64,000 nucleotides of DNA from a virus (IMGVR_UViG_3300037067_027616:192001-256000), one strand, 5' to 3'; positions 7,941 through 22,321 are shown, numbered from the stretch's first letter. A program made the numbers and translations. Notes: generated by a model not told the origin, from the letters alone.

Positions 7941-7962
7941 GGTTTATTCTCCTGTGGTGTTA

Positions 7963-7991
7963 AATATACACCTATCGGGACAAATTGTCAA
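7963..7991 (-). promoter_or_regulatory. Sigma70-type promoter TTGACA-17-TATATT for leader 1
   Basis: -35 at 7991..7986; -10 at 7968..7963. Confidence 0.85.
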
Positions 7992-8235
7992 CCTCTTTTT
8001 TCATTCTTTTGATCTTCCTTGCCAAAAATGCGCGCTCAAGTCCTTTTATGTCGCGGGTGATAGCGTACTCTACACGCTTCTGCCTGTACCCGGAAACTTT
8101 GAGAGTATCGACAGAAAGGAGTGTGACCCCATCCATATTAATGCGGTCAGTCAACCCCACATACACAGTGAATCGCGGAGCGCAGGAAACTAGAAGCAAC
8201 AACATCGCCATTGCGGCGACTATCTTGAAATTCAT
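7972..8235 (-). CDS. Small lipoprotein
   Basis: Signal peptide with LVSC lipobox. Confidence 0.6.
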   Translation of the reverse strand: MNFKIVAAMAMLLLLVSCAPRFTVYVGLTDRINMDGVTLLSVDTLKVSGYRQKRVEYAITRDIKGLERAFLARKIKRMKKEVDNLSR

Positions 8236-8331
8236 CGAAAGTCCTTTGTTTCAGGAATAATGACAAAAATGTGGTCTTATCGGGGATATGCTTGTTGCTA
8301 TGATATCCGTAAACGTGCAGCTACGACAATG

Positions 8332-8901
8332 TCATTCTATGATTTTCTTGGCTTCTGCGCGTCCCTCGTCAAGAAGCTTCTCATCTTTGAGGTCAAGCAC
8401 GGAAAGCAACTGTTGTAATTCTCCGGCATGTACCTTTTCCTCATCAGCGATATCACCCAAAAGTTCCTTTACATCGGCGTTCTCACAGCTGTCGATGATG
8501 AGTTCGTAAAGGTGCACCGCGTCCTGCTCTGCTGATATTGCAAGGCGTATAGCCCTGGCTGTTTCGCGTTGGTCGAGGGGCTTGTCCGTCTTGAGGAGGG
8601 ATCCTATGGATGAGAAGTCCATCGCCTGCTTCTCGGCGCCGGACTCCATCTTCTTCAGCCGCGTGTAATAGTCCTTAAACTCCCGAAGATGCGCTTGGGC
8701 GACCATTTCGTAAAACTGATCTTCGGTGACGGGCATCTTTACGCCAGCATCCTCGAAAGCTTTATTGAACAAATCGAAGATGTCTTTGTGTTCCTTCTCG
8801 ACCTCTTTGCCCATGGACAACTGTTTATTGCTGGGTTTGTCCGCCGCCATCTTTTCCAAATATGAACGCACCACATCCCGTGCTATTGCAGGGCTTTCCA
8901 T
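8332..8901 (-). CDS. DUF5661-like domain fused to a ferritin-like domain
   Basis: MGKEVEKEH...AHLREFKDYYTRL, then AISAEQDAVHLYE...DIADEEKVHAGE di-iron ExxH motif. Confidence 0.7.
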   Translation of the reverse strand: MESPAIARDVVRSYLEKMAADKPSNKQLSMGKEVEKEHKDIFDLFNKAFEDAGVKMPVTEDQFYEMVAQAHLREFKDYYTRLKKMESGAEKQAMDFSSIGSLLKTDKPLDQRETARAIRLAISAEQDAVHLYELIIDSCENADVKELLGDIADEEKVHAGELQQLLSVLDLKDEKLLDEGRAEAKKIIE

Positions 8902-8950
8902 AATCACCGCCTTGTTTGTTACACACAAGGCGTTCTATATTAGAAGAGAA

Positions 8951-9196
8951 TTAGTTAAATTCTTGGGGCGTTCCGAGCCGTTCCAAGATACCGATGGCGT
9001 GTTCCGGGTAAAGTTCCTTCAAACACTCGGGGCATATACTATGCGTAACTATTTTGCGCGGGGCTACGGCGAGGAGTTCTTTGCCTTCGCACCAATAGCC
9101 GTCATCGGTGCGTATCCGCCGACACGAACAACAGGAAGTTACGAGGAAGTTAAGCGGTTTAGTACCAGGTTGTGACATAGCGGGTAGTGGGTACAT
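8951..9196 (-). CDS. Small Cys-rich hypothetical protein
   Basis: CCSCRR...THSICPEC; start uncertain. Confidence 0.5.
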   Translation of the reverse strand: MYPLPAMSQPGTKPLNFLVTSCCSCRRIRTDDGYWCEGKELLAVAPRKIVTHSICPECLKELYPEHAIGILERLGTPQEFN

Positions 9197-9218
9197 GAAT
9201 AGGAAATTACATCCGGTA

Positions 9219-9704
9219 CTACCCGTGCGCAAGATCGTCACGCACCTTCGTGAGGGTCTGCCCGAGCCAGTTGGTGCCTTTCCAATTCTTTGGGTCGTCA
9301 CACAGGGTCGACTTCCAATGGAGTCCGATGCCCCAGATGCAGTCTTGGGGGCTTGCCTCAACGATCGTGCGGGTGCCTGTCGACAGAAGTTCCTCCTTCA
9401 AATCCTTGTTCTGGCTGTACTTGGCCAAACACCCCTTGTACATGATGTCGAGAGCCTTGCCGTCCCATGTGTCCTTGTCGAATCCGCGTACGGCACGGCC
9501 GCATTGCTTTTGATAACCGGGATCATCGGAGGACATGATCTCGTTGAGCGTCTCTGTATCTCCGAACATGCGGGCCTTCTCGGCCATGAGATACTGCTCG
9601 GAGCAATTGTACTTGATGCCGTCGACCTCGAACCCGCAAGGGTGCCAATTGCTGAACGAGCACCCTTTTCCCCAGAAGAACACATACTTGTCGGTCATCC
9701 TCAT
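9219..9704 (-). CDS. NADAR (YbiA-like) family hydrolase
   Basis: FSNWHP, SEQYLMAEKA, VEASPQDCIWGIG, GTNWLGQTL. Confidence 0.92.
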   Translation of the reverse strand: MRMTDKYVFFWGKGCSFSNWHPCGFEVDGIKYNCSEQYLMAEKARMFGDTETLNEIMSSDDPGYQKQCGRAVRGFDKDTWDGKALDIMYKGCLAKYSQNKDLKEELLSTGTRTIVEASPQDCIWGIGLHWKSTLCDDPKNWKGTNWLGQTLTKVRDDLAHG

Positions 9705-9713
9705 AGGTTACTC

Positions 9714-10334
9714 CTATACGAGTCTGTTGAACATTGCTTGGTCATCGCCGCATTTCTCTTTAAGTTTGGCTAACCACGCGCGGGTCTTTACCTTGAACAT
9801 CTCTGGATTCTGCTGTTTGCCTTGGACCTTCATCTTGCAGACAACACCCTCGAAGGTGATGCCAAGCATACGAGAGGAACGGATCTCCTCCTCGACCTCG
9901 GCATTCATGTTACCACGAAATATAAACCTCGCCGTTCCAAGATGCCCGAACAGATCCAAGAACTCGTCAGGGTTGAGGATCCCGTGCTTGAAAGGTTTCA
10001 CATCGATAAGGGTGACATCGTGTGGCTCATCGAGCACGTGCCAACCAGCGAATGAGTGTTGACCCCAAAATTCAAAAAAAGCTGTAGCCTCGTGCCAACG
10101 GTTTTTTTCAAATACGTGACACATGCCTTCTTCATACTTCTCCTGTATAATCCCGATGGCATCCCCTAAAAACGGATGGCCCCCGTCCATGAGTTGGGTG
10201 CGGCTACCGTATTTGTAAAATTGGCCCTTCTTGCGGCGCCATTCGGCACGGATGTTGGATCCGTCCAATTTATCAAAGGCGTATACCGGGACTCCATAGT
10301 GTGGTATCCGCGGTATGGAAGGATATTCTTTCAT
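9714..10334 (-). CDS. ATP-dependent RNA ligase-like protein
   Basis: YPSI, KLDGSN (motif I), FEFWG, EGVV, FKVK nucleotidyltransferase motifs; start at MKEY. Confidence 0.75.
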   Translation of the reverse strand: MKEYPSIPRIPHYGVPVYAFDKLDGSNIRAEWRRKKGQFYKYGSRTQLMDGGHPFLGDAIGIIQEKYEEGMCHVFEKNRWHEATAFFEFWGQHSFAGWHVLDEPHDVTLIDVKPFKHGILNPDEFLDLFGHLGTARFIFRGNMNAEVEEEIRSSRMLGITFEGVVCKMKVQGKQQNPEMFKVKTRAWLAKLKEKCGDDQAMFNRLV

Positions 10335-10351
10335 AAAATTTCTATTTGAAG

Positions 10352-10426
10352 TGGTACGCCTGCCAGGACTTGAACCTGGGTAACTGGTTTCGTAGACCAG
10401 GGCCTGATCCGCTAGGCTACAGGCGC
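10352..10426 (-). tRNA. tRNA-Arg(ACG)
   Basis: CTGGT-CTACGAA-ACCAG; ACCA end. Confidence 0.9.
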
Positions 10427-11062
10427 ACAAGTTTTGTCCCACTCGGCTCTCAAAAAATCGTACAAACCTTTTATCTTTTGTAGGGCTTTTGTGTCTGTGA
10501 TAACCATCTTGAATGTTCCATAGTTACTTCTTCTAGGACTTACGTTACCCCCTTTTTCATAAGAATGAATATCGTCAACTTTTATTTTCATTTGGTCCGC
10601 CCAATATTTTTTCATTTCTTCAGTAACACTGTGACCAATTAAAACGTATCTTGGGTTTTTTACAGAAAATAATGTAATGTATTTGGCAAAAAGTTTCATT
10701 ATTGATGGGTCAGTGTTTGTAAAGTCTATGGTGTTTTTAGATTTTTTGTAACCTTCTGCTAAATACATTACAATAAAATCCCTAACTCCTTTGTTTGAAA
10801 GTATCTCTTCAGCATTGTCATAGCCTTCTCTGTAACAGCCATCTCTGATTTTCCTATACTTTTCAACTAATACCACGACTGCTACTTTCCTAGCACGCTC
10901 AAGAGACTCGCTCCTTGTTATCCTATTGAAACCGAAACCACGAAGCCAATAAAACACTGTAGATTTTCTTCGCCCTAAAATAGATGCTATCTCGTCAATT
11001 GTTTTACCGCTTCTCTTCAGTTCTACAGCTTTTTCTTTCTCCTGCTTGCTGCCTCTTCTCAT
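10412..11062 (-). CDS. HTH + LAGLIDADG-like free-standing homing endonuclease
   Basis: N-terminal HTH (IDEIASILGRRKSTVFYW); MYLAEG...FTNTDP; visibly AT-richer than flanks. Confidence 0.6.
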   Translation of the reverse strand: MRRGSKQEKEKAVELKRSGKTIDEIASILGRRKSTVFYWLRGFGFNRITRSESLERARKVAVVVLVEKYRKIRDGCYREGYDNAEEILSNKGVRDFIVMYLAEGYKKSKNTIDFTNTDPSIMKLFAKYITLFSVKNPRYVLIGHSVTEEMKKYWADQMKIKVDDIHSYEKGGNVSPRRSNYGTFKMVITDTKALQKIKGLYDFLRAEWDKTCAPVA

Positions 11063-11134
11063 TTGAACCTCCTATCGGATGGTGTAGGCCACACGAATGA
11101 AAGTTCAAATAGAAGATTATTACAAATTGTCACA

Positions 11135-11172
11135 TCGTAGCCTGGTATTCTATCCAGTTGAGCTACGGACGC
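11135..11172 (-). pseudogene. 5' half of a second tRNA-Arg(ACG), truncated just after the anticodon
   Basis: GCGTCCGTAGCTCAACTGGATAGAATACCAGGCTACGA followed by unrelated AT-rich sequence. Confidence 0.8.
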
Positions 11173-11179
11173 ATGTTTC

Positions 11180-11449
11180 CTACAATTTCTGTCTTCCCTC
11201 CACCAACTTGTCATCGATGATGATGTACCCTTGTTGTGAAAACGGCTTGTGTATGATGCCCCTGAATCGTAACCCTTGCGATTTGAGGGCACATATCCAT
11301 TCGGTGTTTTCCGGCCGACACGTAAACAGCCACACTTCATTTCCTTCAGAGATGATGGTGTTGACCTTTTCCACCACCCCCGGGAACAACTCGTCAGAGC
11401 CACTAGGTACGATCGTGTTGTCCACGTCCAACAGGTAGCACAACCCCAT
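11180..11449 (-). CDS. Small HAD-superfamily phosphatase-like protein
   Basis: LLDVDNTI (DxD), FTCR, IIIDDK. Confidence 0.65.
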   Translation of the reverse strand: MGLCYLLDVDNTIVPSGSDELFPGVVEKVNTIISEGNEVWLFTCRPENTEWICALKSQGLRFRGIIHKPFSQQGYIIIDDKLVEGRQKL

Positions 11450-11462
11450 TCTAGCCCCTATT

Positions 11463-11705
11463 CTATATCTTCAAAGGTTCAACGGTAACGAACTTCTTTC
11501 CTATGTGGCTCATGGTTTTTTCCTCATACCCACATTTCTTGCATTTGACTTTCCCAGACCACGGTCCCCACGCGAGCGCCGAAATGACTACGATTTGGTC
11601 GTTACCACATTTGGTGCATGTGTCACCGTTCGGGGCTGGTCGTTCCACAGGAAGCATGGGCTTCAAGACGATTTCTTTGACGGCTTCTAACGTTTTCCTA
11701 TTCAC
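11463..11705 (-). CDS. Zn-ribbon protein
   Basis: CTKC...CKKC. Confidence 0.6.
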   Translation of the reverse strand: MNRKTLEAVKEIVLKPMLPVERPAPNGDTCTKCGNDQIVVISALAWGPWSGKVKCKKCGYEEKTMSHIGKKFVTVEPLKI

Positions 11706-11714
11706 AAATGCCTC

Positions 11715-12215
11715 CTACCCTACGAAAAAGTAGTCCACTGTCTTATCCCCGTACACCGACTCCGCCGCCTTCTCCTTTGAATCGTAAGAAGCCAGGCGGT
11801 ACATGTTTGACATTACTCTCCATTGGTCATCTTCATATACGAGAAGTATTGCGTGTCCTCGCCTTTTACCGTCCTTGCGTCCGTGGCACACAGCCATGAC
11901 ACATTTTTTATTTCCCCGCAGGACTTCCCACGACAAGAGTGCAAAATCCTCACAATCTCCACCCCATTTTGCTGCCGTAAGCCAAGGCTTGCTGTAGCAA
12001 TTAATTTTGTCTTTCCGCCACACAAAACCATATTCTGAATACCAAGCCTTCAACGTGATCGTATCATTTACTTTCTTGCGGGCCTCTTTTATCAAGTGCA
12101 TGCCCCACTGTTTCCGTTTGGCATTGAGCAGGCCCTCGATACCTCCCGACAGAAAGATGTAGGGTTTTGCCGTCAACGGACCGTACCACTTGATAAACCA
12201 TCTCCACAACCTCAC
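11715..12215 (-). CDS. Transglutaminase-like cysteine protease
   Basis: GDCEDFA and GHAILLV motifs; likely GTG start at 12215. Confidence 0.7.
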   Translation of the reverse strand: MRLWRWFIKWYGPLTAKPYIFLSGGIEGLLNAKRKQWGMHLIKEARKKVNDTITLKAWYSEYGFVWRKDKINCYSKPWLTAAKWGGDCEDFALLSWEVLRGNKKCVMAVCHGRKDGKRRGHAILLVYEDDQWRVMSNMYRLASYDSKEKAAESVYGDKTVDYFFVG

Positions 12216-12524
12216 GACTTGACCTCTCCTGTTTCGATCGGTATAATAAAAAGATCCGGCATGGTATCTACCTTTTCGTACTGCTGATGACGAGCAAGCC
12301 ACTTTACCACCACGTGAACCTCATGCTCCCCGAGTTCTGCCTGCCAATAGGAGTTGTCACCGTCTGTAAGCCTTTGTGACCCGTTTCTCTCCGCTATCTC
12401 CTTGAGGAACCCCAACATGTCCATCATCCAGGAGTGCCTTGAAGAATTCGTGTCTGCGATGTTTGGTACCCGGATGAGGTTCCCTTCAAACCAATACCTC
12501 AATGTTTCCTTTTTTCTTGCCACT
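12212..12524 (-). CDS. Hypothetical protein
   Basis: ORF downstream of tRNA-Arg(CCG); start approximate. Confidence 0.5.
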
Positions 12525-12541
12525 GTGCACCCCTTTTCTTT

Positions 12542-12619
12542 TGGTACCCGCGGTGCGACTTGAACGCACGATCTTTGCCTTCGGAGGGCAATGTTTTGAT
12601 CCAACTAAACTACGCGGGC
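12542..12619 (-). tRNA. tRNA-Arg(CCG)
   Basis: TTGCC-CTCCGAA-GGCAA; ACCA end. Confidence 0.9.
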
Positions 12620-12810
12620 ATTGTTCGCTCATCCCGTATTTTCTTTTCAACCAACCCCTTTTTCCCATTTCAGCACACAATCCTTGGAACATTTTTCGGT
12701 CGTCTCCGGAAAGACCAAACTCGCGGCCTTTAGTAAACAGTCCCCGGAAGTCATCAAACAAATATTCATCAGACATCTTCGACAAGTCTTCCACAATGTC
12801 CTTCAATCTA

Positions 12811-12887
12811 TGGTGGGCCCGGCCCGGCTTGAACGGGCGACCTCCTGCATGTCGAGCAGGCACTCTAGCCAACTGAGCTACGAGCCC
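12811..12887 (-). tRNA. tRNA-Val(GAC), C at position 33
   Basis: CCTGC-TCGACAT-GCAGG; ACCA end. Confidence 0.9.
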
Positions 12888-12893
12888 ACGTAT

Positions 12894-12970
12894 TGGTACC
12901 CCCTCCCGGAGTCGAACCGGGTACCTACTGATTAAGAGTCAGTTGCTCTAGCCAAATGAGCTAAGGAGGC
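12894..12970 (-). tRNA. tRNA-Lys(CTT)
   Basis: ACTGA-CTCTTAA-TCAGT; ACCA end. Confidence 0.92.
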
Positions 12971-12975
12971 ATGAA

Positions 12976-13356
12976 TTATCCGTTGAACTCCTCTTCGTTC
13001 TCTTTTTCTTTGGTTTCGTCCACACTATCCACGAGTACCTTCTCGATGCTGTCACAAAATTTACGTATGCTCGATACCAACAATTCCCTTTGCGCCTTGT
13101 TGACCTTTTTCATGAATTCACCGAAAATGGCGTTGAACTCCTCATCTGCAAACATTTTCTTTTCCATCTCGGAAGCAATAGTTCCGAGAGCATTGATTTG
13201 CAACTCACGCCATTTCCAAACCATGTCGCGCATAAACTTTTTAGGATCTTCTGTCAGCACGGCCATCGTCTTCAGCACAGACATCGCCACGAAGAACGTG
13301 AAGTCGTTTCTGAGTTCCCTCAATGCCTCTCCACTCACGTTCTCCTCGGTACCCAT
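12976..13356 (-). CDS. Hypothetical protein
   Basis: 126-aa ORF. Confidence 0.6.
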   Translation of the reverse strand: MGTEENVSGEALRELRNDFTFFVAMSVLKTMAVLTEDPKKFMRDMVWKWRELQINALGTIASEMEKKMFADEEFNAIFGEFMKKVNKAQRELLVSSIRKFCDSIEKVLVDSVDETKEKENEEEFNG

Positions 13357-13800
13357 TCATCGTACCTTTCGTTTTGATTTGGTAGGCGCGAGAGGACTTG
13401 AACCTCCGACCCTCGGTTTGTAGGACCGATGCTCTGTACCAACTGAGCTACGCGCCTTCAATATCTTCTCCTTCTTGAGTTTTCCGCCGGCCATTTCAGA
13501 CCAATACTCTACATCGAGGTCGGGTTTCTCCGCCTTGATGTCTTCAGCTATCTTGCGTCCCATCTCGTACAGTTTCTTCTCGTACTTCTTGAGGACACAG
13601 TAATTGGGTCTTCCCGTCGCCACGTCATCGTAGTAGCGCTCAAATTTATTCAAATCATTTGTGATGCTCTTTGACAACCCAATATCTTCTGGGTCGATCA
13701 TAAAACCCTTGTCCAGGCTCCACAAGCACGAAGAACTGAAGTCAGGCATGACCTTCACTCCCGGGACTTTGTACCGTTTTGACTTTGATTCCTTTGACAT
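13357..13800 (-). CDS. Hypothetical protein whose 3' end reads through tRNA-Val(TAC)
   Basis: 147-aa ORF. Confidence 0.6.
   Translation of the reverse strand: MSKESKSKRYKVPGVKVMPDFSSSCLWSLDKGFMIDPEDIGLSKSITNDLNKFERYYDDVATGRPNYCVLKKYEKKLYEMGRKIAEDIKAEKPDLDVEYWSEMAGGKLKKEKILKARSSVGTEHRSYKPRVGGSSPLAPTKSKRKVR
13380..13457 (-). tRNA. tRNA-Val(TAC), C at position 33
   Basis: TCGGT-CCTACAA-ACCGA; ACCA end. Confidence 0.88.
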
Positions 13801-13834
13801 ATGTTCAAGCCTTTTATTAACAGGTTAGACTTTC

Positions 13835-13909
13835 TGGTACCCCCGGTTGGATTCGAACCAACGACCCCCATCTTAAAAGGATGGTATTCTACCTCTGAAT
13901 TACGGAGGC
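13835..13909 (-). tRNA. tRNA-Lys(TTT)
   Basis: CCATC-CTTTTAA-GATGG; ACCA end. Confidence 0.9.
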
Positions 13910-13910
13910 A

Positions 13911-13953
13911 CAAAACAAGAAGGCCCCCGGTGACTTTGTCATCCGGGGGCCTT
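13911..13953 (-). terminator. Attenuator terminator 2 (Lys/Val/Arg-CGN operon)
   Basis: AAGGCCCCCGG-ATGACAAAGTCA-CCGGGGGCCTT followed by CTTGTTTTG. Confidence 0.85.
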
Positions 13954-13980
13954 AAACCTATTGTGAAGAGATTGAATAGG

Positions 13981-14046
13981 CTACACGACCCCCGATGGCG
14001 TCACCCGGCGCTTGGATACGACTCGTTTTGCCTTCAGTGAGAACAT
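13981..14046 (-). CDS. Leader peptide 2 MFSLKAKRVVSKRRVTPSGVV
   Basis: Purine-rich SD; codons 5-15 AAG GCA AAA CGA GTC GTA TCC AAG CGC CGG GTG. Confidence 0.85.
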   Translation of the reverse strand: MFSLKAKRVVSKRRVTPSGVV

Positions 14047-14071
14047 GGTGCCTTTTTCCCTTCAAAAACAT

Positions 14072-14100
14072 AATATACCACAACCTGACAGGTTTGTCAA
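14072..14100 (-). promoter_or_regulatory. Sigma70-type promoter TTGACA-17-TATATT (extended -10 TG) for leader 2
   Basis: -35 at 14100..14095; -10 at 14077..14072. Confidence 0.85.
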
Positions 14101-14103
14101 TGG

Positions 14104-14667
14104 TCAATTCGTGAAATTTACAGGTTGCTTACCGGATCTTTTCAAACAAGCATCGTATAACTTTGCTGCCTGGAGTTCGTTAGCAAAAGTTCCTACTCTC
14201 TTATTGCGATATCTCACCACCCAAGGTTTGTTGATACTTCCGCTATAACTCACTCCGATGTATTTCGATATTGGAGTACCGACGTTTGAATATTGTTCGG
14301 CACGCACTTTAGTGCCCGGACTCCTTGAGAGATCTATGCCGTTCTGTGATCTGTTCCTTATCTTTTTGAAAACCTGAACAGGCTGCTGTGGCATACAGAG
14401 CGGTCTGGCAACAATGTTTTTTCCTACCCTTGCAGGATCGGCCGTCAGCTGGTCACTGACTTCTTCGAGGGGAGAATCTATGAGGGTTATATCGTGTGAG
14501 GTGTCCCCGAAGTACTTTGAGGTACATTCATCGATAGCTTTTTCCAAATAATCAATACTCCCCGCGAATTGGGCCAACTTGAATACTTCATTTACAAGCT
14601 CAAGGATCCTTTGGTTAATCGCAGGTTTCATCAATTCGAGGACGTCATCTGTAACGGTCTTTGTCAT
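14104..14667 (-). CDS. AP2-domain DNA-binding protein
   Basis: SKYIGVS...VGTFANELQAAKLYD. Confidence 0.7.
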   Translation of the reverse strand: MTKTVTDDVLELMKPAINQRILELVNEVFKLAQFAGSIDYLEKAIDECTSKYFGDTSHDITLIDSPLEEVSDQLTADPARVGKNIVARPLCMPQQPVQVFKKIRNRSQNGIDLSRSPGTKVRAEQYSNVGTPISKYIGVSYSGSINKPWVVRYRNKRVGTFANELQAAKLYDACLKRSGKQPVNFTN

Positions 14668-14708
14668 ATTGCTCTCCTTTTATTGTTTTTGATTTCAGAA
14701 ACGGTTTT

Positions 14709-15464
14709 CTATTCCTTTTTATCTTCAGGTATTAAGTCTTCCTTAATAAGCGCCCGGTGCCTGACCTGGCTGTCCAAATGCCACTTTCCTTCCCTGTTCG
14801 ACATGCGTAAAACTTCACAGTTGTAGGGGTTTCTGACGGTTTCATAGTATTCGACAGACCAATGAAACCAGCGCATGAGGAAAAGTCTCATCGTGAGTCC
14901 GTGCGTGACGATGAGGCAAACCCTGGGAAAATCCGGCTTATCGAAATCTCTCCAGAGTGTGTCCATGAAGGTGGACAAGCGGTCATAGACATCAGCCCCT
15001 GATTCTCCATCGGGGATCCTGTAGAAGAACGTGCCAAACTTGTCACGTTCTTCCTCGATCTTTTTTGAAACATCGGCGTCCTTGTAGTTTCCCCAATCCT
15101 GCTCGCGCAACCGCGGGTCGAACGTTTCGCTTGCGATGTGGACATAGTATGGTTTATGGAGTAAATCTTTTATTCTTCCTGTGTGCGTGTGAATACCATC
15201 GAACAAAAGCCTCCAGACGGTATGCCACGTTTGTTTGGTCCGCTCATATGGCGAGCAATATGCGGCGATTTCCGGCGGGTCGATGCCTTTGGGGAATTCG
15301 TGAACGAGATCGTCTTTGATGTAAATGCCTGCGGTAACAGCCTGCTGACGACCGAAATCGGTGAGAGGTATCTTCCAATCAGGGACGGTCTTCAAAAGAT
15401 CCCAATTCACGTTCGCTTCAGACTGACCGTGCCTTATGAGATATATGAATTTTGGAGGAGCCAT
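14709..15464 (-). CDS. Histidine phosphatase (phosphoglycerate mutase family)
   Basis: LIRHGQS, SPYERT, LREQDWG, GES, VTHG. Confidence 0.9.
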   Translation of the reverse strand: MAPPKFIYLIRHGQSEANVNWDLLKTVPDWKIPLTDFGRQQAVTAGIYIKDDLVHEFPKGIDPPEIAAYCSPYERTKQTWHTVWRLLFDGIHTHTGRIKDLLHKPYYVHIASETFDPRLREQDWGNYKDADVSKKIEEERDKFGTFFYRIPDGESGADVYDRLSTFMDTLWRDFDKPDFPRVCLIVTHGLTMRLFLMRWFHWSVEYYETVRNPYNCEVLRMSNREGKWHLDSQVRHRALIKEDLIPEDKKE

Positions 15465-15482
15465 AGTGCCTCTTTTTTTATT

Positions 15483-15557
15483 TGGTATCCTCACCGGGAA
15501 TCGGACCCGGATCTAGAGTTTAGGAAACTCTTGTTCTGTCCGTTGAACTATGAGGAC
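15483..15557 (-). tRNA. tRNA-Arg(CCT)
   Basis: AGAGT-TTCCTAA-ACTCT; T-loop TCCGATT; ACCA end. Confidence 0.88.
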
Positions 15558-15615
15558 ATAGTTGAATATACCATTTCGTAACCCTGATTTACAGCACTTT
15601 TCGAAGACATAAATG

Positions 15616-15691
15616 TGGTGCGGCAGCCGAGACTCGAACTCGGGGCATTCAGCTTGGGAAGCTGACATTCTACCAACTGAATTACTGCCGC
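15616..15691 (-). tRNA. tRNA-Gly(CCC)
   Basis: TCAGC-TTCCCAA-GCTGA. Confidence 0.92.
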
Positions 15692-15696
15692 ATATT

Positions 15697-15771
15697 TGGA
15701 GCGCCAGCCGAGGCTCGAACTCGGGACCCCTACCATGGCAAGGTAGTATTCTACCACTGAACTACTGGCGC
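15697..15771 (-). tRNA. tRNA-Gly(GCC)
   Basis: CTACC-TTGCCAT-GGTAG; TCCA end. Confidence 0.92.
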
Positions 15772-16187
15772 TTTCTGTTTTCATCAATGATTTTGTGCTC
15801 CCGCTCCCACCCGTCCACATATGTCTGTAACTGTTTTTCCACCCAATCGTGAACTTTCTGGGAAAAATCCACTCCATATTCTTTTTTAGCCTCTTCAAAT
15901 CCGACCCGCCACGCTTCCTTCTCAATGTCCGGTGTGTAGTATTCAACAGAAGATGCAAAGTCATCTGGCATGAGAGCGTGACCCAACTCATGGAAAAATG
16001 ACGCCACCTTCAACTCATCATCCTCATAAATCCCTAAATAAATTTTGGGGTGGCAGATGTAACTTTTGTTTTCGTATTCTTCAAGACCATTGGCACTGCA
16101 GTAATCGTCTCCAGGTACGACTTGAACAACCTCATATCCGTATTTGGCGGCTACTTTTTTGAAATCGGATAGTGCCCACGAAATTAA
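15762..16187 (-). CDS. HExxH-motif hypothetical protein (start unclear)
   Basis: FFHELGH...EKEAW. Confidence 0.55.
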   Translation of the reverse strand, partial: LISWALSDFKKVAAKYGYEVVQVVPGDDYCSANGLEEYENKSYICHPKIYLGIYEDDELKVASFFHELGHALMPDDFASSVEYYTPDIEKEAWRVGFEEAKKEYGVDFSQKVHDWVEKQLQTYVDGWEREHKIIDENRKRQ

Positions 16188-16189
16188 AA

Positions 16190-16265
16190 TGGAGCGGGAG
16201 ACGAGGCTCGAACTCGCGACCTTCAGATTGGAAATCTGAGACTCTACCAACTGAGTTACTCCCGC
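16190..16265 (-). tRNA. tRNA-Gly(TCC)
   Basis: TCAGA-TTTCCAA-TCTGA; TCCA end. Confidence 0.92.
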
Positions 16266-16278
16266 GTATTTTCATATC

Positions 16279-16356
16279 TGGTACGCCTGGCGAGACTCGA
16301 ACTCGCGACCCTCAGATTAGAAGTCTGATGCTCTGATCCAGCTGAGCTACAGGCGC
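16279..16356 (-). tRNA. tRNA-Arg(TCT)
   Basis: TCAGA-CTTCTAA-TCTGA; ACCA end. Confidence 0.93.
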
Positions 16357-16361
16357 TCATG

Positions 16362-16868
16362 TTATCTCAACCCATACAAGTACAAAAGTGCCGCATACCC
16401 CGAGGGAAGTAACTGAAGAGGTTTGTCGACCTCCTTCGAGTACTTCACGGCCATCTCTAAAAAATACCGCGCGTGGAGCATCGCCTCTATCCATCTTCGC
16501 GGGTCTTTTTTAGGATCCAAGCCATCCTCCATAATTTCTTTGAACACGGAACATCGATTTTTCCAACCGTACTTGTATAGGCCTTCCAACTCCTTCAGCA
16601 CCTTGCGTGTCACAACCACCGCGGATCCAACTTTATAGGAACCGTGGTACAGCCTGTAAACTGTGTCCTCAATTTCCCAATGGCTGTTGATGTTTTCGAG
16701 AAGTTCCTCAAGTACCTTTTGTTTTTTATGGAGGTTCTTGATGAGAACGCGTTGCCCTTGGTCGTTGCTGCGCTTCTCCTTCATGGCAGCCGCGCTACTG
16801 TTGCGCAGACCTTTCTCACAGAATTTTTTGAAATCCTCGATGCTAATCTTTTTTGCTTTGTCATTCAT
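16362..16868 (-). CDS. Hypothetical protein
   Basis: 168-aa ORF (YRLYHGSYKV...LPSGYAALLYLY). Confidence 0.65.
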   Translation of the reverse strand: MNDKAKKISIEDFKKFCEKGLRNSSAAAMKEKRSNDQGQRVLIKNLHKKQKVLEELLENINSHWEIEDTVYRLYHGSYKVGSAVVVTRKVLKELEGLYKYGWKNRCSVFKEIMEDGLDPKKDPRRWIEAMLHARYFLEMAVKYSKEVDKPLQLLPSGYAALLYLYGLR

Positions 16869-17122
16869 GGAATTTTTGTTTCTCCGTGAGATTCGGAATC
16901 CATGTGCGGATCCTCGCAGAGTACAACGAATTCTCCAGTACCTTCGAGAGCCTCAAGTTCCAAATCATCGAAGTCATTCTCTTGGAAGTTCGTCCCGTCC
17001 CACCAACGGCACATGTACGTTATCCCGTGTTTTGTCACCAGTACTCCGCACACTCTGCCGTCCTGTTTTCCATCGACGATGTGTACCCTTTGGCCCGGGC
17101 TGAACTTTGATTTTACAACCAT
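16865..17122 (-). CDS. Small hypothetical protein
   Basis: 85-aa ORF with GGAG SD. Confidence 0.6.
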   Translation of the reverse strand: MVVKSKFSPGQRVHIVDGKQDGRVCGVLVTKHGITYMCRWWDGTNFQENDFDDLELEALEGTGEFVVLCEDPHMDSESHGETKIP

Positions 17123-17153
17123 GTGGCTCCCCTGTGGTGTGTGGTGTATGGTG

Positions 17154-17227
17154 TGGGCCCACCAAGAGTCGAACTTGGGACAGGCGGATTATGAGACCGC
17201 TACTCTAACCAACTGAGTTATGGGCCC
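17154..17227 (-). tRNA. tRNA with CAT anticodon, probably Ile2 (lysidine, reads ATA)
   Basis: GGGCCCA/TGGGCCC acceptor; loop CTCATAA; lacks initiator C1-A72 mismatch; Ile2 call supported by three ATA codons in leader 3. Confidence 0.8.
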
Positions 17228-17248
17228 GTTGATTCCTGCTCATACACC

Positions 17249-17277
17249 AATATACCATTCAGCGGGACACGTGTAAA
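17249..17277 (-). promoter_or_regulatory. Internal promoter-like TTTACA-17-TATATT
   Basis: Upstream of tRNA(CAT). Confidence 0.6.
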
Positions 17278-17303
17278 CTTGATACATTTGTGAAACAGGT
17301 ATG

Positions 17304-17377
17304 TAGCCCGGACGAGATTCGAACTCGTGATTTTCACAGTGAAAGTGTGATGGATTAGACCGCTACCCTACCGGGCC
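17304..17377 (-). tRNA. tRNA-Glu(TTC)
   Basis: TCACA-CTTTCAC-TGTGA. Confidence 0.9.
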
Positions 17378-17382
17378 ATACT

Positions 17383-18063
17383 TTATGCCAAATCACTTAT
17401 AAAGCCTTGATTATACCGCTTATATGATGTTCGTCTTCCGTTGGAGTGGTTCACGACCATGTCATCTCGCACCCGTATAGTACGGACCTTGTCACCCCGC
17501 ATACCACTTCCGACCTGCCCTCGCCTGGCATCATTCACGTTTCCGGTCACTTTTGACGTGAGCCTGTGGTGGATCCTCTGGCGCAACACGCTCATCGCTT
17601 GTTCCTTATTTTGGTGCTGGCTACGCTCCGATTCGCATCTCACAATAATGCCCGTCGGGATGTGCTTCACCTGTACGGCAGAATCCGTCACGTTTCGGTG
17701 TTGTCCGCCTTTTCCGGAACCGCGCGCTATTGAGATCTCTATGTCACTACACGGTATGTCCACCTTTACCCCGGGGATCTCTTCGAGGACGGCCACTGTG
17801 ATGGTGGAAGTCTGTACACGGCCGCGCTTCTCTGTCGGAGGTATCCTTTGCCACCTGTGACCGCCCGGCTCGTTCTCAAACGTTCTTGCGGCGTCTTCTC
17901 CCGATATTTTGATGCAGACGTAACCTGGTCGCATCTCCAGGACACGCATCTAATATCCCTTCAAAACGCACACCTTTCCATAAATCCTGAACTGATCTTC
18001 AACTAAAAGCTTTGCATCGTCTCCGCCTTCGGCGGCTCTGATTTCCACTATGATTGATTGCAT
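17383..18063 (-). CDS. Class I release factor, RF1-like (PxT, GGQ), lacking domain 1, with in-frame TAG at codon 38
   Basis: MQSIIVEIRAAEGGDDAKLLVEDQFRIYGKVCVLKGY-TAG(17952..17950)-MRVLE...GGHRWQRIPPTEKRGRVQTS...GKGGQHRN; GGAGG SD before ATG 18063. Confidence 0.85.
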
Positions 18064-18079
18064 GGTACCCTCCGTTATA

Positions 18080-18192
18080 AAACGCCCTGGTGTTCCCTAC
18101 GTCCGTCCTGATAGCCCGGGCATCGGGGCATAGGAACGGTAACCTTTCGGTGAGACTTGTTCGCCGAAAGAAAACTCGGTTGCACCTTTTGG
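18080..18192 (-). ncRNA. Candidate structured RNA between tRNA-Glu(CTC) and the release factor gene
   Basis: CTTTCGG/CCGAAAG and GTTCCTATG/CGTAGGGAAC stems. Confidence 0.35.
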
Positions 18193-18199
18193 CTTATAT

Positions 18200-18277
18200 T
18201 GGTAGCCCGGATGAGGTTCGAACTCATGAGTCTCCGCCTTGAGAGGGCGGTGTCCTAGCCAATTAGACGACCGGGCC
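18200..18277 (-). tRNA. tRNA-Glu(CTC)
   Basis: CCGCC-CTCTCAA-GGCGG; ACCA end. Confidence 0.93.
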
Positions 18278-18310
18278 TTACATTCAAAAGTGCTTTTGTC
18301 GTCAGCAGAC

Positions 18311-18322
18311 TGTCAAAGATCA
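18311..18322 (-). promoter_or_regulatory. boxA-like element TGATCTTTGACA
   Basis: 10/12 match to rrn boxA; same position as the 7786..7797 copy. Confidence 0.55.
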
Positions 18323-18325
18323 ACG

Positions 18326-18358
18326 AAAAAACCCCGCCAGGCTTGGCCTGACGGGGTT
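18326..18358 (-). terminator. Attenuator terminator 3 (Glu/Gly/Ile2/Arg-AGR operon)
   Basis: ACCCCGTCAGGC-CAA-GCCTGGCGGGGT followed by TTTTT. Confidence 0.88.
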
Positions 18359-18381
18359 TGTGTATAAGTACAATACTCCCG

Positions 18382-18441
18382 TCAGGTGGGTATTCTTCCC
18401 TCCCTACCTTCTTCAGCTATTCTGACGGTTGCGTTTATCAT
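18382..18441 (-). CDS. Leader peptide 3 MINATVRIAEEGREGRIPT (near-leaderless mRNA)
   Basis: ATG 9 nt after the -10 box; codons 7-17 AGA ATA GCT GAA GAA GGT AGG GAG GGA AGA ATA. Confidence 0.85.
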   Translation of the reverse strand: MINATVRIAEEGREGRIPT

Positions 18442-18450
18442 AGGATATTA

Positions 18451-18479
18451 AATATAACACAAAAAAACGGTGTTGTCAA
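18451..18479 (-). promoter_or_regulatory. Sigma70-type promoter TTGACA-17-TATATT for leader 3
   Basis: -35 at 18479..18474; -10 at 18456..18451. Confidence 0.85.
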
Positions 18480-18949
18480 CCCTGTTCTTTTTTAGCGAGT
18501 CTCATGTGTTCTATCGAACTGGTCATGGTGTCTTTACCGCCCATCTCCGTTAGAAGGTACAAAAGAAGATTTTTCAAACGGAATTCGACATCCTCTTTCA
18601 TCTCGCGGACACCTTTTTTATACTTCTCCACAGACATCTTCAACTTTGGTACTTTGGCGGCCACGCTGTCGAGTATCCTCTCGAATTGGTCGAGAGCATT
18701 TTTAATGCTGTCTATTGGAACTTGGGCCTTGTCCCTATGTTCCATAATGACATCGTCTAAAGAAGGGGTATTCAAATCCCGGGGACTTGGGATAACATTG
18801 TACGGATGCTTTGCAGGATACACGGTGTTTGGAGAGTAAGCAGATTCGATGGTGTTAGATATCACATCGACATCCTCTGCCTCCTTGATCATTCCTAAAA
18901 ACTCGAGTCGTTCAGCAATGTCATCAAATGTCGCGATTACTTCTTTCAT
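18476..18949 (-). CDS. Hypothetical protein with FDDIAERLEFLGMIKEAEDVDVISNTI motif
   Basis: 157-aa ORF; motif shared with 211..771. Confidence 0.7.
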   Translation of the reverse strand: MKEVIATFDDIAERLEFLGMIKEAEDVDVISNTIESAYSPNTVYPAKHPYNVIPSPRDLNTPSLDDVIMEHRDKAQVPIDSIKNALDQFERILDSVAAKVPKLKMSVEKYKKGVREMKEDVEFRLKNLLLYLLTEMGGKDTMTSSIEHMRLAKKEQG

Positions 18950-18956
18950 ACACCCC

Positions 18957-19862
18957 TCATTTTAGATACGTGTAATCTACCTGCTTGGACAGTTGTTCGC
19001 CTATCTCGATGTATTGGCTCATGTATTTGACCCCGTCCATGATGTCCATTTTAGGGTCAAGGTCGTATTTTTCAAGTCTTTGAAAGGTAAAATCTTGATA
19101 TTGCCCGGCTATTCCGGACAATATTTCTTCGTTAGTTCTGTCACATTGTCTACGTGCAAGTCCACCGTCCATGGGACTCATGAAATAGTAGAGTTGCCGG
19201 AGAGCATTGTAACTAGATGCCTCTTTATAGGACATGGAGAACGGGGACTCCCCGCATCCGAGGGACAACATGTGTACCTGTTCGTTTTTGAGCCAATCCA
19301 AGCGGCAGGCCTCTACGTAGGCCTCTACGGTCGGGCTGCTCATGTTACCGGTTCCTCCGTCAAGCCACACAGCGTTTCCTGCTTTGTCTTTGATGGATCC
19401 AAAATAATAAGGCGCGGCGTAGCTCCTGGACAAGGCTTCAAGTACAGTAAGTTCACCGTCTTTTTCTTCCCAAGACTTGAAGAAGTGTGTCCTTCCGTCC
19501 ACCATATTCACGCTGGTGCAGACAAAACGTGTTTCGCAATTCTTCATCCTGAACTCTCCGCCGACGTGATAACGTATGAGTTCGTCTAACGGCGTGCGGC
19601 TGTATTTATTTCCGATGAACGGTATGTGCGTTTGTGGAGTGAACACTTTAGGTATGGCCGACAGCAACAACGGGTAGAACGTTTCCATTCGGAGGGCGCC
19701 TGTGGATAGCACTCCGCCGATTATTGCACCCACGGAAGATCCCCAAACAAGGTCGAAAACCTCGTGTATTTCCTTGCCGAGGACGCGAACGATGTTGGAG
19801 AGTATCGTGGCAGCAATGGGACCCTTGGCGCCGCCGCCGTCTATTACCAAAATGCGCTTCAT
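18957..19862 (-). CDS. Patatin-like phospholipase
   Basis: DGGGAKG, GSSVG, AAPYYF, DGG. Confidence 0.9.
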   Translation of the reverse strand: MKRILVIDGGGAKGPIAATILSNIVRVLGKEIHEVFDLVWGSSVGAIIGGVLSTGALRMETFYPLLLSAIPKVFTPQTHIPFIGNKYSRTPLDELIRYHVGGEFRMKNCETRFVCTSVNMVDGRTHFFKSWEEKDGELTVLEALSRSYAAPYYFGSIKDKAGNAVWLDGGTGNMSSPTVEAYVEACRLDWLKNEQVHMLSLGCGESPFSMSYKEASSYNALRQLYYFMSPMDGGLARRQCDRTNEEILSGIAGQYQDFTFQRLEKYDLDPKMDIMDGVKYMSQYIEIGEQLSKQVDYTYLK

Positions 19863-19898
19863 ACCGAGTTAACGGTATGAAGAGAGCATTATGGTTTG

Positions 19899-20798
19899 TT
19901 AGGACGGGTCAAGACCGTTGATGTCGCTTCTTTCGATCGACAACGGGTTTTTTCTTTTGTATCCAGAAGTCTCGTGCCTTTTAACGACCTTATGATCTTC
20001 ATAGGATGCACGGAGTTTCAAAAATTCATTGTAAGACTCCGGTCTTCCATCGAACTTCAAAAAATCGTCCCAGGCGAACATGTCTTCGTCTTTGCAGAGC
20101 CATATTTTGAGGATGCGGTCGACTTCATCATAGGATTGTGCCCCGAACTGCTCCAAATCGGAGGATGTGATTCCGAGCCCGTCTGTAGGAACAGCGTGGA
20201 CACACTGCTCAAGTGCGGTTGCGGCATCCTCGGCGTGTTCGGTGCGTAGTGATTGCACGAGATACTTCGAAAGATCGTAAACCTCCGTCTTCCACAGATA
20301 TTGTATCATGCCATAGTCGCCGACGTCACCATGAAGCGTCCAGAACCCCAACTCATATTCGGAAAGATTGTCGGTAGACAGAACCAATCCTTTGTGTTTG
20401 CTTGCAAGGTCAAACAGTCTTATCATGCGGAGGCGCGCTTTCAAATTTCCCCGGCGAACTTTTCGCTCATGTGTGAGGTCACCAGGTTCATCGTCTTCCA
20501 TGAGTATTTTTACCATCGATGCAAAGTCGTTGCCAAAGTCGGCTTCTTTGAAGCTTGTGCAAAAGGCCTTTCCTACGGCCGCCGCGCGTTGTATTTCTTC
20601 ACTTTTATTCGTGGCTATGGTGATGCTTCTGCCGATGAGTTCCATACCATGATAGTCGCATACAGGTTTGGCCAATGCTGCGCACAAGGCACTGTCCAAT
20701 CCCCCGGACACACCGAGAACCAAAGAATTCAAATGGTTGGATGAAACATATTCCGACAGCGATTTCCGTAGACTCTCAACAACTTTAAGATGATCCAT
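19899..20798 (-). CDS. nadE: NH3-dependent NAD+ synthetase
   Basis: LGVSGGLDS, GNLKARLRM, GFWTLHGD, KTEVY, PTDGL. Confidence 0.93.
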   Translation of the reverse strand: MDHLKVVESLRKSLSEYVSSNHLNSLVLGVSGGLDSALCAALAKPVCDYHGMELIGRSITIATNKSEEIQRAAAVGKAFCTSFKEADFGNDFASMVKILMEDDEPGDLTHERKVRRGNLKARLRMIRLFDLASKHKGLVLSTDNLSEYELGFWTLHGDVGDYGMIQYLWKTEVYDLSKYLVQSLRTEHAEDAATALEQCVHAVPTDGLGITSSDLEQFGAQSYDEVDRILKIWLCKDEDMFAWDDFLKFDGRPESYNEFLKLRASYEDHKVVKRHETSGYKRKNPLSIERSDINGLDPS

Positions 20799-20818
20799 TT
20801 TATGTCCTTCCTGCAGGG

Positions 20819-22321
20819 TCAGTCAATGAGGATGCATTGATTTATCATATTCTGTCGTTTTTCGAAAAGATTTGGACTCAAGCCAACTTTAACCGTGTGA
20901 GGCTTGTCGATTCTCTTTTGTGTCCAATGTAACATGGCAATCTGCGACCGCACTCGTGCACGGACATCTTCAAGGGTGTCCATGAGATAGCCTTTATTTT
21001 GTGTCTGCCGCGGTTGAACATTCCAATGGCTTTCTATTTCCGTACTCTTATTGCCATCGTCCTGGTGTACAAACTTGTGTATCTCTTTAAGGTTTTCTTC
21101 TTTTCCATATATGAGGATCCCCTGCAGGAACCCGTCCTTGTCCACCAACGCGGCGGATCTGTTGGAACCGGGTATGCTTGTTTTGACCGGATTGTCCCGT
21201 GCCAATTTGATAACGCTCCGCTCGACATATCCTGCTTGCACAGAAGTAAGTTTGGCAACGCCGCCGATGCTCGGTTGATCCCAACATGTACCGGGTTTCG
21301 TTCCGCAAGCCCATACAAGGTTTTTGAGTATTTCATCAGGCTTGTATCCGAAACGCGCTGCGTTATCGCTTATCTGCTCGCGGATGGCCTGTATGGAATA
21401 TTCATCGAGGTCGTTCGTCATATAAATTTTGACATCTTGCAACCCGGCGGATTGCAACATCCGGTATCCTTCCATGGCCAAGTAGGCCAAGTCGCCACCA
21501 TCGAGGCGTATTCCCATCGTTCCTTTTGACCTGCGTATCTCATCGATGTTCTTGCTGAACGCCTTGATGGCATTTGGTATACCGGACGACAACGTGTCGA
21601 CAGTGTCCACAAGAAGTACAGGACGGCCAGGGTTGCATTGCAACCACAAGTCAAACGCTTTGAATTCATTGCCAAAACTCTGGATCCACTCGTGACCCAT
21701 GGTGCCCACGGTCGGGATATCAAACCACGATCTTATTTCTGAATTGCTGCTGATCGTGGCTCCGGCAAGATACGAATACAACGTGGTGCGCAAACAATCT
21801 TGCGCGCGCCGGCGTGCGAACTCCATAACCGATCCGACTTCCGTGGCGTTGACCACCCTCCGCCATTTCGTCATGGCGAGGCTCGGGTAATTCACGCACT
21901 CGAGGAGCATACCTTCCGCTATACGTACATCGAGAAGCGACCCCTCCAAGACAACCGCAGGCTCCCCCCCGAACATGAGGGAACCTTCGGGAAGGGCGTT
22001 TACGGTAACATTGACAGTCTTCCTCTCGATAAGGTACTTGATGAAGTCCTCACGGTATCCTTGCCCATGCAATATGTCACCTACATCGATGGAGAATTTA
22101 TACTCCGCCAGTAAGCGTTGGAACTCTGTAATTCCCCCCAAGATGGCGTAAGATCCTTCGAATGGCGCCTTTCGGATGAAGTACGTCTTCGATGCGGTAA
22201 GGTTATGCCTTTGCAGAAAGAAGTCCGACTGTGCCATCCGAGGATAGTAGTCATCCCACGGGCAAAGGCTTTTGCGAGCCATCGCGCTGAGTCCTTGGTA
22301 CAGATTCTTCTTGTCATGCAT
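20819..22321 (-). CDS. pncB: Nicotinate phosphoribosyltransferase
   Basis: MEFARRRAQ, GTMGHEW, LLVDT, GIRLDGGDL, TNDLDE, GGVAKL. Confidence 0.85.
   Translation of the reverse strand: MHDKKNLYQGLSAMARKSLCPWDDYYPRMAQSDFFLQRHNLTASKTYFIRKAPFEGSYAILGGITEFQRLLAEYKFSIDVGDILHGQGYREDFIKYLIERKTVNVTVNALPEGSLMFGGEPAVVLEGSLLDVRIAEGMLLECVNYPSLAMTKWRRVVNATEVGSVMEFARRRAQDCLRTTLYSYLAGATISSNSEIRSWFDIPTVGTMGHEWIQSFGNEFKAFDLWLQCNPGRPVLLVDTVDTLSSGIPNAIKAFSKNIDEIRRSKGTMGIRLDGGDLAYLAMEGYRMLQSAGLQDVKIYMTNDLDEYSIQAIREQISDNAARFGYKPDEILKNLVWACGTKPGTCWDQPSIGGVAKLTSVQAGYVERSVIKLARDNPVKTSIPGSNRSAALVDKDGFLQGILIYGKEENLKEIHKFVHQDDGNKSTEIESHWNVQPRQTQNKGYLMDTLEDVRARVRSQIAMLHWTQKRIDKPHTVKVGLSPNLFEKRQNMINQCILID

Follow-up and report, generated by a model that had tools for sequence, protein, structure and literature searches.

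How is transcription of a block of phage transfer RNA (tRNA) genes controlled? The question is raised by a 64,000-nucleotide (nt) stretch of viral DNA (IMGVR_UViG_3300037067_027616:192001-256000), hereafter called the window and numbered from its first base. The window is bases 192001-256000 of an IMG/VR virus record of 466,729 bp, estimated to be 98% complete. The phage genome contains 49 tRNA genes and one transfer-messenger RNA gene; 47 of the 49 tRNA genes are on the minus strand at genome positions 173,901-210,277. Six of those in the window lie directly behind a promoter, a short open reading frame (ORF) and an intrinsic terminator, which together occupy 14100..13911 on the minus strand. 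We consider this segment to be a ribosome-mediated transcription attenuator, in which slow decoding of Lys, Val and Arg (CGN) codons would give read-through; from sequence comparison and RNA modelling we put the probability of this reading at roughly 0.75. The unit probably gates an operon of the six tRNA genes, several small ORFs and an RNA-ligase-like gene. Its parts are listed here.

14072..14100, minus strand: promoter, near-consensus σ70 type, with the -35 element at 14100..14095, a 17-nt spacer and the -10 element, which has a TG extension, at 14077..14072

14047..14065, minus strand: presumed 5' untranslated region (UTR), purine-rich, with a weak Shine-Dalgarno-like stretch, read directly from the sequence

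13981..14046, minus strand: leader ORF of 21 codons, the ATG included, closed by TAG

14002..14034, minus strand: regulatory codon run, leader codons 5-15, with Lys, Arg(CGN) or Val at 9 of its 11 positions

13987..13997, minus strand: segment 2, the 5' strand of the antiterminator, within leader codons 17-20, complementary to 13951..13940

13955..13982, minus strand: spacer hairpin, 13982..13975 with 13962..13955, which begins inside the stop codon and draws segment 2 close to segment 3

13911..13953, minus strand: intrinsic terminator, consisting of segment 3 (13951..13938), a loop (13937..13935), segment 4 (13934..13922) and a T-rich tail (13921..13911)

The promoter has 11 of 12 consensus matches in a scan for σ70-type sites. 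Transcription would start near 14065, a position that is not mapped, and the leader is the sole ATG-initiated ORF between there and the terminator. The terminator hairpin (13951..13922) has 13 GC-rich pairs and a folding energy of -27.9 kcal/mol (z -6.2). A preliminary description of this DNA had placed a leader at 14046..13981 with two AAG codons and with AAA, CGA, CGC, CGG, GTC, GTA and GTG. All are present, and GTC and GTG each occur twice. Codons 5-15 include, in order, AAG, AAA, CGA, GTC, GTA, AAG, CGC, CGG and GTG; codons 20-21 are GTC and GTG. The downstream tRNAs named in the same description (Lys-TTT, Val-TAC, Lys-CTT, Val-GAC, Arg-CCG and Arg-ACG) were recovered by ARAGORN and Rfam at 13909..10352.

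Are the leader codons matched to these tRNAs by more than chance? Against a background of codon usage in long ORFs of the genome, 17.3% of leader codons are expected to be readable by the six tRNAs of the block. The observed number is 11 of 20 (p = 1.7e-4). All six anticodons have a readable codon in the leader (p = 0.007). The match is specific to the reading frame, the other two frames scoring 2/20 and 4/20. Arginine is written only as CGN in this leader, and as AGR in a sister leader that lies ahead of AGR tRNAs.

The terminator 5' arm has two possible partners. It can pair with segment 4, to form the terminator, or with segment 2, and the two helices are mutually exclusive. The preliminary description had proposed the second pairing, between 13997..13987 and 13951..13940, as an antiterminator, and it consists of 11 pairs with one bulged G. 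The complete antiterminator fold, of which the spacer hairpin is a part, has an energy of -26.3 kcal/mol (z -3.8), equalled by 1 of 200 shuffled sequences.

The position of segment 2, close to the end of the leader, suggests that a translating ribosome could choose between the helices. In our model a ribosome mask, which reached back 15 nt and forward 13 nt from the first base of the A-site codon, was stepped along the leader codon by codon, and the output was the probability that the terminator arm pairs upstream. With the ribosome on codons 1-14, which contain at least one codon for each of the six tRNAs, the modelled probability of antiterminator pairing is 0.75-0.93. With the ribosome on codons 15-21, where it covers segment 2, the value is about 0.3. 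Mask-model behaviour is alike in the four further units described below. The model therefore predicts that the switch is ON with a ribosome on the cognate codons, or with no ribosome at all, and OFF with a ribosome at the end of the ORF. This agrees with the earlier suggestion that occlusion of segment 2 may be the sole off-switch. That suggestion went with the absence of a clear 1:2 helix, and here too the two analyses concur. The best candidate found by RNAalifold pairs 14011..14002 with 13997..13988 (-10.5 kcal/mol). It was rejected as a convincing 1:2 helix because it is no better than shuffled sequences in the focal copy (z -0.4) or in the relative L055 (z +0.4); in the relatives L011 (z -2.7) and L012 (z -2.1) it has a modest advantage over shuffles. 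Hence the unit lacks a convincing pause or anti-antiterminator helix of the kind that is typical of trp-type units, although not class-defining.

The mechanism that we propose is as follows. The host-type promoter would start a transcript whose first 150 nt hold the 21-codon ORF. A ribosome translating this ORF would, if it passed the central Lys, Arg(CGN) and Val codons at normal speed, arrive at the last codons and TAG and cover segment 2. The terminator hairpin would then form, and transcription would end 2 nt before tRNA-Lys. If matching charged tRNA were scarce, the ribosome would linger on a cognate codon and leave segment 2 free. Segment 2 would then pair with the terminator 5' arm, and RNA polymerase would read into the tRNA genes and the ligase-like gene. 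The tRNAs released would be those whose shortage is sensed, and so the unit would act as a negative-feedback controller of supply.

Is the arrangement unique to this block? The same anatomy was found at four further sites, making five units in the 467-kb phage. Of the sister promoters, the window contains two (18479 and 7991), and the other two, at genome positions 188712 and 183864, lie upstream of it. The two sister units in the window are these.

18329..18479, minus strand: sister unit A, with promoter, 19-codon leader, antiterminator and terminator, before Glu/CAT/Arg(AGR)/Gly tRNAs

7800..7991, minus strand: sister unit C, with promoter, 26-codon leader, antiterminator and terminator, before Asn/Pro/Gln tRNAs

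The terminator of unit C is the first one that read-through transcripts of the focal block (block B) would reach. When the codons of each leader were compared with each tRNA block, the resulting matrix was diagonal, with own-block fractions of 8/18, 11/20, 11/25, 16/22 and 24/39. In three of the units every anticodon has its exact cognate codon in the leader (20/20, 6/6 and 5/5). The peptides encoded by the five leaders have no common sequence. In all five units the terminator 5' arm, folded with the 3' arm left out, pairs with a segment at or next to the leader stop codon.

The promoter pattern provides a control for this layout. It has 23 exact copies in the genome, compared with 0 for a reversed-pattern control. 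An ORF of 18-39 codons and a terminator within about 200 nt are found only after the five promoters that precede tRNA blocks. The remaining 18 copies run into ordinary genes, and just one of these is followed by a terminator, at +280. From these counts, the restriction of the layout to tRNA-block promoters has a Fisher exact p of about 2e-4.

A separate resemblance exists between the terminator tails of units A and C. The tails (18310..18336 and 7785..7811) share a 27-nt stretch, at 85% identity, that ends in a perfect -35-like hexamer. The stretch is without a -10 element at a usable distance and does not occur in the focal unit.

We also sought the unit in other phages. Contigs L011, L012 and L013 were found by way of homologs of a 147-amino-acid (aa) ORF behind tRNA-Lys. 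A scan of metagenomes for the segment-2/stop motif returned 38 hits, of which only L037 and L052 are true homologs; the same scan of viral contigs gave chance hits only. L055 and L057, which are longer contigs from more distant phages, were found via homologs of an ORF in the next block. A megablast search of the 4.4-kb block against reference phage records gave no match. There are thus six homologous copies (L011, L012, L013/L052, L037, L055 and L057), and in each the unit precedes the same six tRNAs. The proteins encoded by neighbouring genes are 61-72% identical (63-72% for the unit-C neighbour of L055 and L057), so these are homologous copies and not assembly duplicates of one genome.

Every copy retains the promoter hexamers, the spacer between them being free to vary, together with the ATG, the TAG stop, segment 2, the spacer hairpin and the terminator. 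The preliminary description had remarked on the TAG stop, and it is present in all seven copies. The relatives also retain the purine-rich 5' UTR stretch, and the Shine-Dalgarno match is better in L011. A run of 8 or 9 consecutive Lys, Arg(CGN) or Val codons is retained in L011, L012, L013, L037, L055 and L057, and synonymous changes within it remain among codons read by the block. In L055 the first third of the leader has diverged; 12 of its 24 codons are matched (p = 2.4e-4), and the codon matrix for the three complete units of that phage is diagonal. Compared with the focal copy, the leaders agree at 86-95% of third codon positions and the adjacent 147-aa gene at 42-59%; no other element of the locus is as conserved as the leader. 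The freeze at third positions indicates selection on the exact codons and the RNA, and not on the peptide.

The helices themselves are conserved and covary. All homologs retain the pairs of the terminator, and the first and last of these show double, compensatory changes. In L012 the first terminator pair changes from G-C to A-T and the partner base in segment 2 changes from C to T, so that three positions change together. The antiterminator has an invariant G5/C5 core; the helper pairs on its flanks are not the same in the focal type, L055 and L057, yet stay complementary. L012, L055 and L057 have, at the corresponding position, a spacer hairpin whose sequence differs. The antiterminator is the minimum-energy fold in each copy, with z-scores of -3.1 (L011), -2.7 (L012), -1.4 (L013), -1.2 (L037), -5.4 (L055) and -2.0 (L057).

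One further contig was considered and set aside. L010, a 205-kb contig of a more distant phage, has at 5335..5646 a promoter, a 43-codon ORF, a terminator and a second good promoter. The second promoter directly precedes a 26-tRNA array that also holds an RNA-ligase-like gene (51% identical protein). We do not count L010 as support; codon coverage by its ORF (18 of 24) is not above the background set by random ORFs there (16-17 of 24), and beyond the terminator lies a promoter.

Taken together, codon statistics, the frame control, the cross-block matrix, the promoter control, ribosome-mask folding, and conservation with covariation support the central claim of the preliminary description, a codon-matched Lys/Val/Arg(CGN) attenuator. 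Several observations weigh against it. The antiterminator is favoured with no ribosome present (0.81), so the default state would be ON, unlike that of trp-type units. A ribosome placed exactly on TAG still leaves an upstream pairing probability of 0.65, and so the off-state is not clean in silico. When the best duplex between the terminator arm and shuffled leaders was determined, the focal unit gave a marginal p of 0.06, because G-rich leaders pair easily with a C-rich arm; three sister units reached p of 0.001 or better in the same test. The focal unit has a weak Shine-Dalgarno match, its transcription start is deduced, and a C and a G interrupt the T-tail of the terminator. All homologs share the same six tRNAs, and hence the focal unit does not probe whether a leader would track a changed tRNA set. 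There may also be a phage-specific promoter inside the block.

That last point leads to an alternative to which we assign a low probability. Here the terminator would be constitutive; promoter, ORF and terminator would make up a stand-alone gene for a small RNA or micro-protein, and the tRNAs would be transcribed from other, for example phage-specific, promoters. Small RNA genes do share the layout of a promoter, about 150 nt and a terminator, and in L010, where ORF and terminator are comparable, a good promoter comes after them, right ahead of the first tRNA. The preliminary description had stated that a constitutive promoter between the terminator and the tRNAs would count against attenuation. 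In the focal unit there is no room for one, as only 2 nt lie between the tail and tRNA-Lys(UUU). The promoter scan found no good site inside the tRNA block, but it covered the σ70 type only, and huge phages can carry their own transcription factors. A search of the 15-kb tRNA region (3800..18600) for a repeated motif that might be another type of promoter found only tRNA-derived repeats and one terminator-tail repeat. Moreover, a constitutive terminator leaves unexplained the in-frame enrichment of own-block codons in five unrelated leaders, the complementarity of the ORF end to the terminator arm and the frozen synonymous sites. The lack of common sequence among the five leader peptides also counts against it.

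Somewhat less probable again is a switch of opposite or different sign, in which leader translation promotes read-through, for instance because an amber-suppressor tRNA lets the ribosome pass TAG into the terminator 5' arm. Retention of TAG in 7/7 copies and the presence of a suppressor tRNA at 3861..3937 fit this idea, and in the focal copy the next in-frame stop after TAG is at 13941..13939, so that a read-through ribosome would stop on segment 3. However, spacer indels are not multiples of three, and the frame past TAG is not conserved. The conserved spacer hairpin includes TAG, and this location can account for TAG being conserved. The four sister leaders end in TGA or TAA, and TAG is the ordinary stop of 106 of the 422 long ORFs (at least 150 aa) in the genome. 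Block-specific codon choice would again go unexplained. Finally, an accidental ORF might lie between an ordinary promoter and the terminator of an upstream gene. Short ORFs are common (295 of at least 20 aa in 17 kb), and neither the 1:2 hairpin nor the 2:3 duplex is individually significant in the focal copy. We regard chance as very improbable, given a codon match at p of about 2e-4 that is repeated in four sister units and two diverged genomes, a layout found only at tRNA-block promoters, and a leader that is the most conserved element of its locus.

How does the proposed attenuator compare with known systems? Leader peptides attenuate amino-acid operons, as in trpL, hisL, leuL and pheL, and the leaders thrL and that of ilvGMEDA are multivalent. 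Like these, the phage unit has a promoter, a short ORF with regulatory codons and a terminator before the first structural gene. Its antiterminator likewise shares a strand with the terminator, and ribosome position would pick the helix. As with thrL and ilvL, several amino acids would be sensed together. The phage unit differs in that it would control tRNA genes, and so its output would be the sensed molecule itself. Its codons are chosen by anticodon, CGN here and AGR in a sister unit. It has no convincing 1:2 helix and is predicted to be ON without translation, unlike trp-type attenuators. It is also phage-encoded and lacks a match to any Rfam leader family. A search of window positions 1..22000 with Rfam cmscan (E up to 1) recovered tRNAs and, beyond these, nothing but weak chance hits that resemble tRNAs; none of the window's three leaders matched the Trp, His, Leu, Thr or Phe leader families or T-box.

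The pheM leader of Escherichia coli attenuates the pheST operon, which encodes phenylalanyl-tRNA synthetase, and responds to the supply of charged tRNA. The phage unit would resemble pheM in applying leader-peptide attenuation to the translation machinery and not to amino-acid synthesis. Whereas pheM is chromosomal and concerns a synthetase and one amino acid, the phage unit concerns tRNA genes, three amino acids and six anticodons. T-box riboswitches also use transcription antitermination to report tRNA status to translation-related targets. They bind one uncharged tRNA through a specifier codon and a T-box sequence, with no translation, and the phage unit would instead use an ORF with many codons. 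The general model of leader-peptide attenuation has been described (PMC1183508), and we think it probable, with a confidence matching that of the attenuator itself, that the unit is classical ribosome-mediated attenuation with a new target class, tRNA genes. Our full-text literature searches, which left subscription journals mostly outside their scope, turned up no account, for phages or for anything else, of tRNA genes being attenuated by a leader peptide.

What might deplete the tRNAs? A tentative and rather less probable proposal is that the five attenuators are a phage-encoded, codon-resolved sensor of host decoding capacity and form an inducible counter-defence circuit. Cleavage or depletion of one host tRNA, by PrrC, by PARIS or through host shut-off, would stall ribosomes on the matching leader. 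The stall would turn on just the replacement set of tRNAs and, in the focal block, the RNA-ligase-like repair enzyme. The RNA ligase and kinase of phage T4 repair tRNA-Lys cut by PrrC. As in the T4 and T5 cases of counter-defence, the phage described here supplies its own tRNA-Lys, with an RNA-ligase-like gene alongside. PARIS cuts the tRNA-Lys of E. coli, and the tRNA-Lys of T5 rescues infection, according to the part of the T5 article drawn on here (PMC11464382). In that part a plasmid promoter drives the phage tRNA, and nothing is said of a phage tRNA gene being controlled by sensing of demand (PMC11464382). A link to PARIS or PrrC may be reasonable by analogy with the cleavage known from E. 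coli.

Phage tRNA genes are usually viewed as constitutive codon-usage add-ons or, recently, as decoys against tRNA-cleaving defences. If the counter-defence circuit were real, these would be the first tRNA genes to control their own transcription via the speed of translation. A demand-sensing switch before such genes would mean that large phages gauge decoding speed for each codon and replenish only what is short. It would take leader-peptide attenuation to a new class of target, one whose product acts back directly on the sensor. With it, the five leaders would serve as compact natural sensors of the availability of individual tRNA species and, because their promoter is of the host consensus type, could be tested as such in E. 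coli. It would also become testable whether phage tRNAs are deployed in response to tRNA-targeting immunity.

The genes that the focal unit would control are listed next. All six tRNA assignments are from ARAGORN and Rfam.

13835..13909, minus strand: tRNA-Lys (TTT), the first gene after the terminator

13380..13457, minus strand: tRNA-Val (TAC)

12894..12970, minus strand: tRNA-Lys (CTT)

12811..12887, minus strand: tRNA-Val (GAC)

12542..12619, minus strand: tRNA-Arg (CCG)

10352..10426, minus strand: tRNA-Arg (ACG)

9714..10334, minus strand: RNA-ligase-like ORF of 206 aa, directly after the last tRNA of the block (PHROG 548 'RNA ligase', E 7e-12)

Block B also holds several small ORFs, including the 147-aa ORF behind tRNA-Lys. 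The RNA-ligase-like ORF has a lysine-x-Asp-Gly nucleotidyl-transferase motif near its N-terminus, and in L052 a gene with 85% identity is at the same position behind the same six tRNAs. It had no Pfam match, and a PDB sequence search gave only spurious SUMO matches. The name is provisional, since it depends on PHROG 548 and the motif. The phage genome had no match to the polynucleotide kinase/phosphatase family PF08645.

The upstream flank of the block contains an AP2/HNH-type endonuclease-like ORF (14104..14667) and an ORF of the histidine-phosphatase family (14709..15494). The histidine-phosphatase gene stays beside the unit in L011 and L012. The presence of a phosphatase and a ligase-like enzyme near tRNA-Lys is a hint, from gene neighbourhood, of RNA-end healing and sealing. 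The tRNA-Lys(UUU) gene is only 61-62% identical to those of L011, L012 and L013, and its D-arm and anticodon stem differ from theirs. The gene has apparently been replaced or evolves fast, as might be expected of an anticodon nuclease target.

A second tRNA of the block also has an unusual history. The 5' half of a tRNA-Arg(ACG), broken off just past the anticodon, is at about 11172..11135 (minus strand). It is followed by a 216-aa helix-turn-helix ORF (11062..10412) and then by the complete tRNA-Arg(ACG) at 10426..10352, which has a different sequence. The intact tRNA-Arg(ACG) of L052 resembles the broken half in the focal phage. Hence the original gene seems to have been split by an insertion that carried its own replacement tRNA. 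Rfam found no group I intron at 11172..10352. In L011 (5168..5267) a tRNA-Lys(CTT) missed by ARAGORN has a 24-nt insertion right after the anticodon, which could be a mini-intron or could mark a disrupted gene.

Not every tRNA of the phage is attenuated. On the plus strand at genome positions 411456..411917, outside the window, a sixth promoter copy directly precedes two tRNA genes, an unusual Asn-type (anticodon ATT) and Leu-TAA, and neither a leader ORF of the usual size nor a terminator follows it. The amber-suppressor-type tRNA (anticodon CTA) at 3861..3937 (minus strand) is also outside the five attenuated blocks, beside a GH5 cellulase-like gene. The similarity of this tRNA, and of the CAT tRNAs, to other tRNAs was uninformative as to their identity. 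The standard genetic code fits the genome: ORFs of at least 150 aa total 408 kb in 467 kb, counting both strands and including overlaps. On this figure, and the use of TAG as a stop given above, genome-wide TAG recoding was rejected. The relative L057 has an ochre-type tRNA (anticodon TTA, at about 15415) shortly upstream of its cellulase-like gene, and L056 has a CTA-anticodon tRNA at about 12811. Finally, among the tRNAs of the neighbouring attenuated block is a 188-aa release-factor-like ORF (17383..17949, minus strand), comprising the end of a PCRF domain and an RF-1 domain, with a homolog in L057.

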